DNA of 64,000 nt, taken from the NCBI GenBank assembly GCA_050872785.1, contig JBNMHO010000003.1:12554-76553 (forward strand), in the 5' to 3' direction. The notes beneath the pieces are model-generated. The model was given only the letters and a program-made list of their open reading frames with translations, made no database searches and was not told the origin of the DNA. Below are positions 24,936-52,096 of this stretch, piece by piece; positions within the stretch are counted from its first letter, which is position 1; each line of letters starts with the position of its first letter. The position numbers and the translations under genes are program-made. This DNA comes from Clostridia bacterium. GTDB lineage: Bacteria; Bacillota; Clostridia; Christensenellales; UBA1242.

Positions 24936-26535
24936 ATGAGATTTTGGGACAAAATGAGAGTTGGCATGTTGTGCGTAAATTACACGCTTGTCATGGCTCT
25001 TTTGTCCATTATCATCTTCGGAGCAACCCAACAAAGAACTTCCTCAAACGTGTCTGTAAGGTATTCTAGACCCTCATACACCGTGACTTTTGACCCAAAC
25101 GGCGGTGAGTTATCCACAATAGGGGGGGGGGGTATCCTCTAAGCAAGTAACCCTTGGTGACGCCTACGGCGACTTACCATTGCCCACAAAAACGGGTTAT
25201 TCATTTGTCGGTTGGAAATATGGCAATGAACTTGTCACTGCTACAACCAAAAACTTGACCCAAGGCGACCATACCTTGACCGCTTCATGGGGACATTCAG
25301 TTAAATTTGACTATAACAACGGAACCCTATCGAACTCACTTTCTCCAACTTATGCTGGGGAAGTCGGCACAACAACTTCACTTCCAAGCACACTTAACCC
25401 AACCTACTCGGGTCACACCTTTGCGGGCTGGCATTATGGAAAAAATTTAATTGAGCCAACGACATTCACTGGCTCCAATTTTATCGCTCTCGGTCGTGAT
25501 TATATGTACACCGACAAAATTACAATCGTAGTCAGAGCATATATGGACGATTGGACGAAATTTGGCACAAAAAAAACCACCCTTATCAGTTGCACTGAAA
25601 GAGGGGGGTGGTCGTTGAGTAATGAGATTGACTATAATGCTGTCAACTATATTTCATTTGCTATTATGAGTGAAAAGACGAATTTATACATACACACACA
25701 TAGTTCTATAACTTTTTCCCAAATGTCTAGTGGTTATCATACATTTATTGGGACTTTTGATGGCTCATATGCACGCTTATATATTGATGGGATTTTGGTT
25801 GGGACAAGTGCAAATGCTTCAACTACAATAAAATATGATTCATCAAATGGAATATTTGTTGGAGCTGAAGCAGAAGCGAATACAGTTTCTCCTTATGGTT
25901 ATTTTTTTACGGGAAAGGTTGATTATGTATCAATAGAAAATAGCACAATAGACGAAGCAAAAAATATAGGAGCTAACTTAATAACAGAAACCAATTTTGA
26001 TGGGTCAAATTATATTTCACTTGGAAAAGCATATAAGTATAAAAGTAAGATAGCTATAACAGTAATGGCTTCAATGAATGACTGGTCAAAATTCTCTTTA
26101 ATGTCAATGATTTCTTGCACCAATGGCGGTGGCTGGACTATTGAGGCAAAGCAAGACGTAATTTTACTTGCTGCATATGATAATAGTAGCAATGATTACA
26201 ATCGGGTCTCTTCTTCTATAAAGACATCTGAACTAAAAAGTGGATATCATAAATTTGTTGGTATATTCAACGGGGAAAATTTGAAATTATATGTAGATGA
26301 TGAGCTTGTGGCAAATGGGACAAAGTTTGGCTCAAAAAACATTAAATATTATTCCGACAATGGTATATTTGTTGGAGCTGAAGCAGGCAATAATACTTCA
26401 ACCCCAGAAGTAGGTTATTGTCAGTATTTTAAGGGAACAATAAGCCATGTTTTCATTGACAATACGTTTGTGGCAGAAAGAGGTATATATATTTATCAAG
26501 ACTTCGATGTTGTTGCAACGGCAATTTGGAACTGA
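24936..26535 (+). CDS. Frameshifted (phase-variable, OFF) surface protein: signal helix + InlB B-repeats + two LamG-like domains
   Basis: ORFs 24936-25142 and 25180-26535 fuse into 532 aa if G11 becomes G10, restoring TVTFDPNGG...GGGVSSKQVTLGDAYGDLPLPTKTGYSFVGW (B-repeat). Confidence 0.85.
25122..25132 (+). repeat. Poly-G (G11) tract in coding sequence, out of frame
   Basis: ata-GGGGGGGGGGG-tatcctct. Confidence 0.95.
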
Positions 26536-27686: not shown

Positions 27687-27721
27687 TTTTGAGAATAATA
27701 AAAATATGGAGGAATTTTAAA

Positions 27722-28610
27722 ATGACTAAAAGGGAACGATTTGTTTTGTGGCTCAATAGGTTTTATCACAAGCAAAATAAGATTACAATTTGTGTCTTAT
27801 ACACCCTCCTTATGGCTATCCTTGGTGTCATTATTTATGGGGCAACTCATCAAAGTTCCTCAAGCAATGTTTCAGTAAAATATACAGTCCCATACTACAC
27901 AATTACCTTCGACCCAAACGGCGGAACCCTCGAAAATGCAGGGGGGGGGGGTATTCTCAAAGCAAGTAAAACTTGGTGACACTTACGGCGATTTGCCACT
28001 GCCAAGCAGACCGGGTTATAGCTTCAACGGTTGGTATGAAGAAGCCCTTGTAACATCAGAATCAGTCCTTTCCACCCCATGCGACAAAACCCTAATCGCC
28101 GAATGGAATGATGGTATACCAGCAGATATGAGAAATTGGGAATTTATAACACCGCCTTATGAAATAGACTTTGCCAATTCGTTTACAAATTGGAATGTCA
28201 GCAATGGGGAAAATAAGTTCGATTTTTGTGGAGTAGGTGGGAGTGAAGTTAAATATACTGCACTTAATCTTGAAAAAAATAAAACATATTCAGTAGTTTT
28301 TGATTATGTTTTGCCAAATTTTACTTATACTGATGCAAACGGGAATTTCCGAGATAAAATGTATTCATATATTGTCAGCATTGATCCTGAAGCAAATTTA
28401 TTATATAATATGACGGATAGGATAGAAACAGTTGTTTCGATTTACACTTTAAATTCAAATACAGACGGGAAAGCCGTCCTATCTTTTACTGCAAGGGAAA
28501 CGGCAAAATATTATCTTGTGGTGAATTTTGGTTATTTGAATGACAATATAACTTATCACTTTGAATTTAATAATTTCACTCTATACACACACCAATGCAC
28601 ATTTGGCTGA
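27722..28610 (+). CDS. Frameshifted (phase-variable, OFF) surface protein: signal helix + InlB B-repeat + CBM-like beta-sandwich
   Basis: ORFs 27722-27979 and 27936-28610 fuse into 295 aa if G11 becomes G10 (TITFDPNGG...GGGVFSKQVKLGDTYGDLPLPSRPGYSFNGWY); paralogous N-terminus to 24936. Confidence 0.85.
27941..27951 (+). repeat. Poly-G (G11) tract in coding sequence, out of frame
   Basis: gca-GGGGGGGGGGG-tattctca. Confidence 0.95.
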
Positions 28611-49830: not shown

Positions 49831-50451
49831 ATGGCAGTCACAAATTCAAAAAAGAAATTGATAATTGCAGTATTTATGCTTTGCACGGCAATCGTTGGCT
49901 TTGTGGCAATGACTTTTTCTATCCTTGCTGCAACAACTCAACAAGTGCAGTCAGTTTTTTCTGTAACATACGCTGGCGACAACGTCTATGCAACTGTTTC
50001 TGGAACATATAGCATAAACGGCGGCACAGCAAGCAACCTAACTGCCACAGACGGCTCCACAAGCCTTGTTTTTACACCAGGAATGGGGCAAACTTCAAAA
50101 ACTCTTTCTTGCCCAGAAGTTGACCTGTCACCAGAAAATAGCTGCTTGTTCTTTGTGTATAAGTTTGAAAACAAAAACCCAAGCGGTGGATATGCAATGC
50201 AAGTTGCTTTTTCAGACGGCTCCACTTCCACAAACATGACAATTACATACTACGCCTCAACGACTTCCGTGCCAACATTGGCTCAAACAGAGGCTTCCAC
50301 CACGGGCAAAAACATAAGTCTTACAGTAAATGCACAATCAACTGGCTACATCGCCGTGTGCGTTAAGATAACGTCAGTTTACCTTGACGCAAGTTACCTC
50401 AGCACCGCTGCAAATGGTGTTTGTGCAACAATTTCAAGTTTAGCGTCATAA
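49831..50451 (+). CDS. Secreted S/T-rich beta protein; stand-alone paralogue of the N-terminal domain of 50546
   Basis: Signal helix + ATTQQVQSVFSVTY; shares NV..S.TY, QT.KTL, F.NKN, NMT..YY, ANG with 50546. Confidence 0.8.
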   Translation: MAVTNSKKKLIIAVFMLCTAIVGFVAMTFSILAATTQQVQSVFSVTYAGDNVYATVSGTYSINGGTASNLTATDGSTSLVFTPGMGQTSKTLSCPEVDLSPENSCLFFVYKFENKNPSGGYAMQVAFSDGSTSTNMTITYYASTTSVPTLAQTEASTTGKNISLTVNAQSTGYIAVCVKITSVYLDASYLSTAANGVCATISSLAS

Positions 50452-50466
50452 ATAACATTCAATCGC

Positions 50467-50493
50467 TTGACAATTCGACATAAATCTTATAAT
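50467..50493 (+). promoter_or_regulatory. Possible sigmaA promoter of gene 50546
   Basis: TTGACA followed by TATAAT (15-nt spacer, suboptimal). Confidence 0.4.
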
Positions 50494-50545
50494 CTATTGT
50501 ATATTTCAATGTGTAAATCAAAAGACTAAGGATAGGAGAGAAAGG

Positions 50546-52096
50546 TTGAAAAAGAAGATTTTTTCGTTGATACTCACAGCAGTTCTTATTGTGACAGCCT
50601 CTGTCGCAATGGTCTTTTATGCTTTGGCTGCAACCCAAATCAACCTAAAATCTACCATTGAAGTTGGTTATACTGCAGCACCAAATGTCGTCTGCGAAGC
50701 CAGTGCAACCTATCAACTGGAAAAAGATGCCTCGGCAACTGCCTTTACTTCTGGTGGACAAAGTTTCGCTTACATAGACTCTCAAACAACAAAAACACTC
50801 ACCGCCAGCAACTCTGCCTTGGTGCTTAATGACATGACCAGTTCATATGTCATATTCACATTCACATTTAAGAACAAAAACTTAATGTCAACTTTCAATC
50901 TTAACATCAAACTTACAGACAATTCACTCTGCTCAAATATGACAAGAAAATATTATTTTGGCTCACTTTCTTCATCAAACCTTGCCAATCTCGCCAGCCA
51001 AATAAAATCTAACGGCGTTGACTACTCCGCACTTTCAAGCCAAACCTTAACTCTGGGCTATCAAGAAACTGGCAAAGTCTATATGCTTGTGGAAATCATT
51101 TCTGGCCTTAAGGGAAGTTACACCGCAAACACCGCAAATGGCTTCAAATTTACGCTTACAACCACCACGGGGGGGGGGGTAGCCTTTCTTAGCAGTGACT
51201 GGAAAGACCGCCTTAACATAGGTATAGAAAATATAGAAGACAACAATGTAACAACCCTTATTTTTACAAAAGACTCAGCCCAAACAAGCGGACTTTCAAA
51301 TAGCAAGTCAGTTGGCACAAACAGTGCAACAAGCACTTCTGCCTACACAACAGCCCCAGGAATTTCTGATGTTACAGCCTACTGGAATAGCAACAAGTCA
51401 AAAATTGTTATTTATTCACCAAACACCATTTATGCCCCACAGAGCTGCTATCAATTGTTTGATCTTTGTGAAAAAATGACAACCATAGATTTATCCAACT
51501 TTAATACTAGCATTGTGACCGATATGTTTTGTATGTTTTCTGGCTGTAAATCTCTAATAAACCTAGATTTAAGCAATTTTAACACCAGCAATGTGACGAA
51601 TATGTGTGAAATGTTCTTGCGTTGTTCTGGACTAACCAGTCTAAACTTAAGCAATATTGATACAAGCAAAGTGACGGATATGGAGGGTATGTTCTATAAT
51701 TGTTCTGGGTTAACCAGTCTAAACCTAAGCAATATTGATACAAGCAAAGTGACGGATATGGGGATTATGTTCAGCGGTTGTTCTGGGCTAACTAGTCTAA
51801 ACCTTGGCAACTTTAACATGCAGGCCTGCACTAATTTTTATTACATGTTTGATGATTGCTCCGCCCTTAATTCAATAACTCTGCCATACAACTTGCAAAG
51901 CGGAAAGACAATAGACCTGCCAAGTCTAGATAGTGGATATTATTACACTGCCGATACTTCTGACATTTCCGTAGGTGCTTATTCTTTTACAAAAATTGGA
52001 ACGGAAACTAATCTCGCAAATAATGTTATAGCTTGTTCAACAGCAAGCAAAAAAGTAGAGGTGTGGAAAAACTCTGGTACTCCTGATATAACCTAA
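50546..52096 (+). CDS. Surface protein: ~210-aa N-domain + in-frame poly-G hinge + BspA/DUF285-like LRR repeats (phase ON)
   Basis: Signal helix; TTTGGGV encoded by G11; 26-aa repeats LxxLNLSNxxTSxVTxMxxMFxxC. Confidence 0.85.
   Translation: MKKKIFSLILTAVLIVTASVAMVFYALAATQINLKSTIEVGYTAAPNVVCEASATYQLEKDASATAFTSGGQSFAYIDSQTTKTLTASNSALVLNDMTSSYVIFTFTFKNKNLMSTFNLNIKLTDNSLCSNMTRKYYFGSLSSSNLANLASQIKSNGVDYSALSSQTLTLGYQETGKVYMLVEIISGLKGSYTANTANGFKFTLTTTTGGGVAFLSSDWKDRLNIGIENIEDNNVTTLIFTKDSAQTSGLSNSKSVGTNSATSTSAYTTAPGISDVTAYWNSNKSKIVIYSPNTIYAPQSCYQLFDLCEKMTTIDLSNFNTSIVTDMFCMFSGCKSLINLDLSNFNTSNVTNMCEMFLRCSGLTSLNLSNIDTSKVTDMEGMFYNCSGLTSLNLSNIDTSKVTDMGIMFSGCSGLTSLNLGNFNMQACTNFYYMFDDCSALNSITLPYNLQSGKTIDLPSLDSGYYYTADTSDISVGAYSFTKIGTETNLANNVIACSTASKKVEVWKNSGTPDIT
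51169..51179 (+). repeat. Poly-G (G11) tract in coding sequence, in frame
   Basis: accaccac-GGGGGGGGGGG-tagcc. Confidence 0.95.
51467..51880 (+). repeat. 78-bp tandem coding repeats (about 5 LRR units)
   Basis: tgttctgg units at 51623, 51701, 51779 exactly 78 bp apart with near-identical framework. Confidence 0.85.

Follow-up and report, generated by a model that had tools for sequence, protein, structure and literature searches.

The 64,000-nucleotide (nt) stretch analysed here (hereafter, the window; C3:12554-76553 of the Christensenellales assembly G000, which comprises 1,110,236 bases in 37 contigs with 37.7% G+C) encodes a 516-residue surface protein whose gene carries a run of eleven guanosines (G11) at the joint between two modules. 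This tract is proposed to be a slipped-strand (replication-slippage) contingency locus. Lengths of the form 3n+2, such as G11, would give the 516-residue protein, composed of an N-terminal membrane helix, a β-sandwich domain (N-domain), and a PARCEL/DUF285 leucine-rich head, while the other lengths would stop 0-3 codons past the tract, giving products of 211-216 residues that hold a complete N-domain and have the architecture of natural stand-alone members of its family. The head would be turned on and off, and the anchored N-domain would be produced in every state. We consider it reasonably probable that the tract drives slipped-strand phase variation of the ordinary kind in an unusual place, so that the head alone comes and goes and no state lacks the anchored N-domain; that a switch exists at the DNA level is far more certain than this full reading. 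The mechanism is already known, and the new part is the placement of the tract after a complete domain, in Christensenellales.

Reading frames around the tract

In-silico changes of the tract length reproduced the products listed in an earlier note on this DNA. With G10, translation meets the TAG at 51180-51182 directly after the tract and the protein ends after 211 residues; with G12, the tail GSLS is followed by the TAG at 51190-51192, giving 215 residues; and G11 gives 516 residues. At random in-frame positions of the genome's long open reading frames (ORFs), equally short runs in both off-frames arise with a chance of 0.022, a figure from a single test that was picked after the data had been seen. 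The window contains 12 G8 words, in three G11 tracts, compared with 0.43 expected, a count that was reached by none of 100 shuffles, and the G11 tract at 51169-51179 is not due to chance.

The C-terminal part of the protein matched DUF285 (PF03382; E = 4.7e-36, 123.6 bits, curated cut-off 25) and, in 6 stretches, the PARCEL repeat (TIGR02167; E = 6.2e-47, 156.7 bits, cut-off 30). An AlphaFold2 model of the full-length protein, with a mean predicted local distance difference test score (pLDDT) of 88.4, placed residues 2-28 in a helix, followed by an extended stretch, the β-sandwich at residues 50-207, and a three-glycine turn between strands 200-208 and 212-215. The anchoring signal is predicted, also from the models, to consist of a KKK motif followed by the hydrophobic helix.

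The N-domain family and the domain boundary

The N-domain is shared with the 206-residue protein encoded directly upstream. BLASTP aligned residues 7-196 of that protein with residues 2-199 of the 516-residue protein (63 of 202 positions identical, 31%; E = 8e-15), and the family profile, too, established the homology of the two N-domains on which the earlier note had built. In a 17-sequence family alignment, the C-termini of stand-alone members were found to lie no more than a few residues from focal residue 207, close to the glycine turn of the model. The tract thus sits on a true domain boundary, as had been proposed.

A profile built from 17 N-domains, run against 1.84 billion cluster representatives, matched 1182 of them at E ≤ 1e-3, and the homologous proteins come, by their source names, from Christensenellales metagenome-assembled genomes (MAGs). 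The best 150 family representatives comprise 110 stand-alone proteins of at most 240 residues and 40 longer ones. The N-domain is N-terminal in 39 of the longer proteins and lies at residues 65-267 in the remaining one (P0133). Scanning of 38 of the 40 C-terminal parts revealed DUF285, BspA-type LRR_5, the Listeria-Bacteroides repeat together with LamG, and Big_2, and many had no Pfam match. Only one of 114 short family proteins has a glycine run near its end, indicating that the short members are genuine stand-alone forms rather than hidden short states. A cluster represented by P0157 and P0204 (208 and 213 residues), 74% identical to the focal N-domain, stops exactly at the joint and has no glycine run; judged from its protein sequences, it may represent either a descendant fixed without the head or an ancestor form. 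DNA encoding this cluster was not found in the 28 genus genomes searched.

The N-domain is without a Pfam family, with only weak matches to DUF6550 (34 of 108 members, best E = 2e-4), and its profile gave a single match, at E = 2.7, among the sequences of solved structures. The best Foldseek matches, CfaB and FimG, were weak (E = 3.4e-3 to 7e-3; template-modelling (TM) score ≤0.35), and the best VIA match was a generic sandwich (Z = 6.6), with the bundling pilus 7ueg at Z = 5.6 and a root-mean-square deviation of 8.7. These matches are generic immunoglobulin (Ig)-like or weakly pilin-like and unspecific, and on this ground the N-domain is not filed with any fibre family here. A protein-atlas lead to Peptidase_M73 covers just 22% of the members of one cluster, and this family lies outside the 25 Pfam families most often matched by the 108 members. 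No sortase (PF04203) and no archaeal-type SipW peptidase (TIGR02228) was matched in G000, which is 98.5% complete. The N-domain proteins may serve as subunits of an assembly, as the wording of the earlier note implied.

Natural variation in tract length

Tract lengths were compared at the DNA level in G000, the assemblies G008 and G011, and the metagenome contig L056, and at the protein level in three clusters of 90% identity. In DNA the tract does vary, with G10, G11, and G12 found among strains. Both G000 and G011 have G11, the long state. The orthologous tract of G008 is G10, which gives a head-less product of 211 residues, and that of L056 is a C followed by G12, three bases longer than in G008 and head-less too. 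The head frame is open over 282 codons in both head-less strains, whose tract lengths differ. L056 is 98.9% identical over 4621 nt to L031, which shares the tract context of G008:C14. A search of metagenome contigs with the exact pattern of tract and flanks gave no matches, and a protein-based scan gave L056 and L057.

The orthologous proteins comprise 22 distinct sequences, which are not independent samples, and their tract lengths are inferred save where DNA was seen. Five, the window's own among them, carry the head. The other 17 are head-less and have four different glycine tails, ending in GGG (5 of the 22), GGGG (3), GGGGSLS (6), or GGGGGSLS (3, of which one has an unusual stretch upstream). 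The expectation that either slip leaves a complete N-domain protein without the leucine-rich repeat (LRR) domain is thus borne out by alleles in public assemblies.

It is very improbable, in our judgement, that these lengths are assembly errors or that the head-less alleles are outgoing pseudogenes. Homopolymers are prone to sequencing error, and in relatives several contigs have a G run at their start or end. However, the G run occurs at the same site in independent assemblies of different sources, G11 is reproduced by Logan contigs of three sequencing runs, run lengths in the genome are bimodal and the runs are confined to surface-protein genes, and the 282-codon head frame is intact in two head-less strains with different tract lengths.

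Slippage of RNA polymerase or of the ribosome on the G run would let a single DNA template yield both forms within every cell, in a ratio set by the tract. Long homopolymers are slippage sites for RNA polymerases, the literature dealing with A/T runs, and an 11-nt homopolymer is present here. Nevertheless, the DNA-level length variation already accounts for the observed products. The segment 51160-51280 (121 nt, from 9 nt ahead of the tract) folds no better than its shuffles (z = +1.41), 190 of 200 of which fold at least as well, and thus shows no stimulatory RNA structure after the tract; nor is there an Rfam match at the tract. We judge slippage at the RNA or ribosome level to be improbable as the basis of the two forms.

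Selection on the N-domain and replacement of the head

Between G000 and G008, the ratio of nonsynonymous to synonymous substitution rates (dN/dS) of the focal N-domain is 0.039, at a synonymous rate (dS) of 0.27. The neighbouring genes tkt, frr, and uppS, used for comparison, gave ratios of 0.083, 0.014, and 0.043, respectively (dS 0.28-0.32 across the three), and the upstream stand-alone paralogue gave 0.098 against its G008 orthologue. For the head, the ratio is 0.16 against G008, at a dS of 2.17, and 0.34 against G011 (dS 0.22); the matching part of the N-domain gave 0.044 against G011 (dS 0.49). In the two genes of the window in which the whole protein is switched on and off, the parts downstream of the tracts have ratios of 0.15 and 0.39. 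By these sequence comparisons, the N-domain is under strong purifying selection of a housekeeping-like kind, and the head is relaxed. The value for the N-domain fits exposure to selection in every phase, as seen in this single gene.

The nucleotide identity to G008 is 63.6% in the head versus 93.9% in the N-domain, and the break in identity falls within ~30 nt of the tract. Given this difference and the head dS of 2.17, the head has been replaced between sister species. The motif in the linker that opens the head recurs at C2:8935, in a member of the other anchor family.

Poly-G tracts in the rest of the genome

The lengths of G and C runs in G000 are bimodal. Counts drop to 13 and 12, respectively, at length 6 and to a single C7 run at length 7, yet 24 runs measure 8-12 nt. 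Nineteen of these 24 tracts sit 55-130 codons into the genes of one paralogous surface-protein family (for example, tract-bearing genes of G000 are found at C2:8935, C4:11652, C5:48871, and C21:6065). The members of this 19-tract family have a conserved, near-identical N-terminal anchor, a tract within the first Listeria-Bacteroides repeat, and C-terminal domains that vary. A long ORF is opened by only one of three lengths in each gene; about five are in frame in this assembly, and the majority are not. Of the 28 genus genomes, 18 have one or more G9 runs, and about eight have many.

The window holds two further G11 tracts, at 25122-25132 and 27941-27951, in the surface-protein genes 24936-26535 and 27689-28610. 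Both genes are out of frame here and encode the N-terminal anchor, the tract-bearing first Listeria-Bacteroides repeat, and LamG or other domains; the G008 orthologues of the two tracts are G12 and G11. The sole tract outside the two surface-protein families is a G8 (G000:C18:5317-5324), lying 16 codons from the start of a different kind of ORF, 370 codons long, that would be in frame with G7.

G000 has eight N-domain genes. Four bear a head, namely the focal gene, C3:80044 (Listeria-Bacteroides repeat plus LamG), C4:61299 (DUF285), and a gene on C24 for a 429-residue protein, and the other four are stand-alone (49831 and three tandem copies on C19). All four head-bearing genes are accompanied by a poly-G tract, compared with none of the four stand-alone genes. 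The tract lies at the joint in the focal gene only; in the other three it lies in a conserved upstream leader.

This upstream element consists of a ribosome-binding site, an ATG, 15 conserved codons, and a tract of G9-G12. Copies were located outside the window as L061 (G000:C3:79836-80030), L063 (G000:C4), L064 (G000:C24), and L060 (G008:C5). A hairpin followed by T6 stands 73-99 nt past the leader tract; the stem varies in one copy, and the position and the T-run are kept. In each complete copy, there is a single tract length at which the leader ORF reaches or enters the hairpin, its stop codon ending at +80, +155, or +59; at the other lengths the stop comes earlier, at +19 to +54. Judging from this arrangement, the element could be a phase-variable leader-peptide attenuator; it gave no Rfam match.

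Is only the head switched?

A rival account of the joint tract would be a plain ON/OFF switch, in which only the 516-residue protein is functional, the 211-216-residue product is inert or degraded, and the position of the tract is an accident of Gly/Thr codon drift. The 19 other coding tracts are classic early-gene ON/OFF switches, the fold searches gave no sign of N-domains assembling together, and the fraction of head-bearing orthologues, 5 of 22, is close to the one in three expected from random frames. We regard this account as unlikely, though not negligibly so, because the short product has a widespread natural architecture, being that of 110 of the 150 best representatives, and because the N-domain is constrained like housekeeping genes although the head is missing from most of the alleles sampled. 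The cluster at 74% identity, which stops at the joint, points in the same direction, since there, at the protein level, the short form may be fixed. For the LRR head, the switch is exactly ON/OFF, and the ~19 other tracts switch whole proteins on and off. The phrase "not an ON/OFF switch" of the earlier note was therefore too strong, and its interpretation is supported in part.

Several points weigh against switching of the head alone as the role of the tract. With 19 other coding tracts placed early in genes, whole-protein ON/OFF switching is the usual case, and the joint position could be incidental. The joint tract is seen in one orthologue group only, and relatives at 65-66% identity to the focal protein have GDG in place of GGG at the joint. 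G000 encodes both MutS and MutL, hence slippage is not unchecked. Length differences between assemblies could partly reflect sequencing, polymerase chain reaction, or assembly error at homopolymers. Logan contigs from all four runs examined bridge the tract as G11, with no indel; three of the runs are from one study, two are possibly the source of this DNA, one contig belongs to a ~95% relative, and such contigs cannot reveal minor variants. (The fragmentation of contigs around the tract in run X3 was traced to a nearby single-nucleotide polymorphism at 51208, and the tract was rejected as its cause.) Intrinsic constraint alone could equally explain the low dN/dS of the N-domain. Finally, it is only presumed that the short product is exported and stable and serves the cell.

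Switching within a population is presumably frequent and reversible, and the head is presumably a module for binding that cells display at a cost when under, for example, immune, phage, or niche pressure. It is suggested more tentatively that selection holds the tract at the inter-domain joint, so that every frame would give a complete, exported, anchored N-domain with a constant function and only the exchangeable LRR head would be gambled. On this view, RNA-level slippage could further give each cell a mix of the short and long proteins.

Features of the locus

The coordinates of the focal gene pair and its elements are collected in Table 1. The two genes are separated by 94 nt, and the intergenic identity to G008 is 92.6%. 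The promoter-like pair was read directly from the sequence and is not listed by a promoter scan requiring a spacer of 16-18 nt. Elsewhere on the contig, outside the window, the minus-strand ORFs of L015 (G000:C3, 4885-6389) are taken by eye to encode a sporulation sigma factor with an anti-sigma/anti-anti-sigma pair, in a genome of only 1.1 Mb.

Table 1. Elements of the focal gene pair, in window coordinates.
Feature	Coordinates	Strand	Remarks
Stand-alone N-domain paralogue, 206 residues	49831..50451	+	ATG-start ORF; no poly-G tract inside or ahead
Promoter-like TTGACA, 15-nt spacer, TATAAT	50467..50493	+	Read directly from the 94-nt intergenic region
Focal gene, long state, 516 residues	50546..52096	+	TTG-start ORF; signal-anchor, β-sandwich N-domain, Gly turn, linker, PARCEL/DUF285 LRR head
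Predicted membrane anchor or signal sequence, hydrophobic helix, residues 2-28	50549..50629	+	Both structure models
β-Sandwich core of N-domain, residues 50-207	50693..51166	+	Model pLDDT 90.7, 108-sequence alignment
G11 homopolymer, proposed switch; 3n+2 lengths put the head in frame	51169..51179	+	Sequence, in-silico length changes, orthologous tracts
Two out-of-frame TAG stops, 51180-51182 and 51190-51192	51180..51192	+	Close the slipped frames after 0 and 3 further codons
Head: linker opening AFLSSDWKDR, then DUF285/PARCEL LRR repeats (~residues 300-445, 51443-51880)	51182..52093	+	Profile matches, full-length model
Perfect 12-nt inverted repeat, 36 nt between arms, past the stop codon	52108..52167	.	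Likely bidirectional terminator; kept in G008

Relation to known systems

Campylobacter, Neisseria, Haemophilus, and Helicobacter are example hosts of homopolymer contingency loci. Their phasomes resemble the set described here in having G/C runs of ~8-13 nt within surface-protein genes, bimodal run lengths, one of three lengths in frame, and length differences from strain to strain. The present case differs in its host, an uncultured member of the Christensenellales, in the presence of MutS/MutL, and in the position of the tract, which follows a complete domain rather than lying near the gene start. A single full-text literature search found no work linking Christensenellales to phase variation, its one hit bearing an unrelated title. 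In dnaX, the protein made after a slip on a homopolymer stops at a domain boundary and is a functional short form (gamma) that lacks the C-terminal domains of tau. There it is the RNA or the ribosome that slips, and each cell contains both forms, whereas here length variation was seen in DNA; the outcome is alike. The general mechanism of homopolymeric-tract contingency loci is treated in PMC3711429.

The PARCEL/DUF285 lipoproteins of Mycoplasma, including MAG1330 and MAG3260 of M. agalactiae, carry the same PF03382/TIGR02167 repeats on membrane-anchored surface proteins. In PMC2996958, poly-G tracts of these lipoproteins are placed near the gene start, and the tract is proposed, for MAG1330 and MAG3260, to drive phase variation by frameshifting. 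In the protein studied here, by contrast, the tract follows an autonomous domain of 207 residues, and the anchor is a helix plus a β-sandwich rather than a lipobox. Intragenic invertons of gut bacteria provide another reversible change of coding DNA through which one gene yields two protein versions, as presented in PMC10028968. They rely on enzyme-mediated inversion rather than slippage and are not homologous to the poly-G switch, the likeness being one of outcome.

The N-domain proteins resemble donor-strand-exchange pilins and TasA-like fibre subunits in having a helix that serves as signal or anchor, an N-terminal segment in extended form, and an Ig-like sandwich of ~160 residues. Tandem paralogue arrays occur in relatives, and pilins are among the weak best fold matches. 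However, no match was convincing (Foldseek E ≥3.4e-3, TM ≤0.35; VIA Z 6.6), and G000 lacks a match to either of the two processing enzymes searched for, the SipW-type peptidase and the sortase.

Implications

Homopolymer contingency loci, known chiefly from a few pathogens and mycoplasmas, are extended by these results to an uncultured, small-genome member of the Christensenellales with 24 tracts. The three natural alleles, with their predictable product sizes, make the focal gene a directly testable case. For annotators, proteins of 211-216 residues recorded as "truncated", and "split genes" in such MAGs, would be phase states and not pseudogenes. If selection does hold the tract at the joint, this, together with the leader poly-G tracts of the three paralogues, would mean that tract placement chooses which module of a surface protein varies. 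A design rule is suggested, in which a tract early in a gene or in its leader switches the whole protein, while a tract at a domain joint switches the distal module only and keeps the base.

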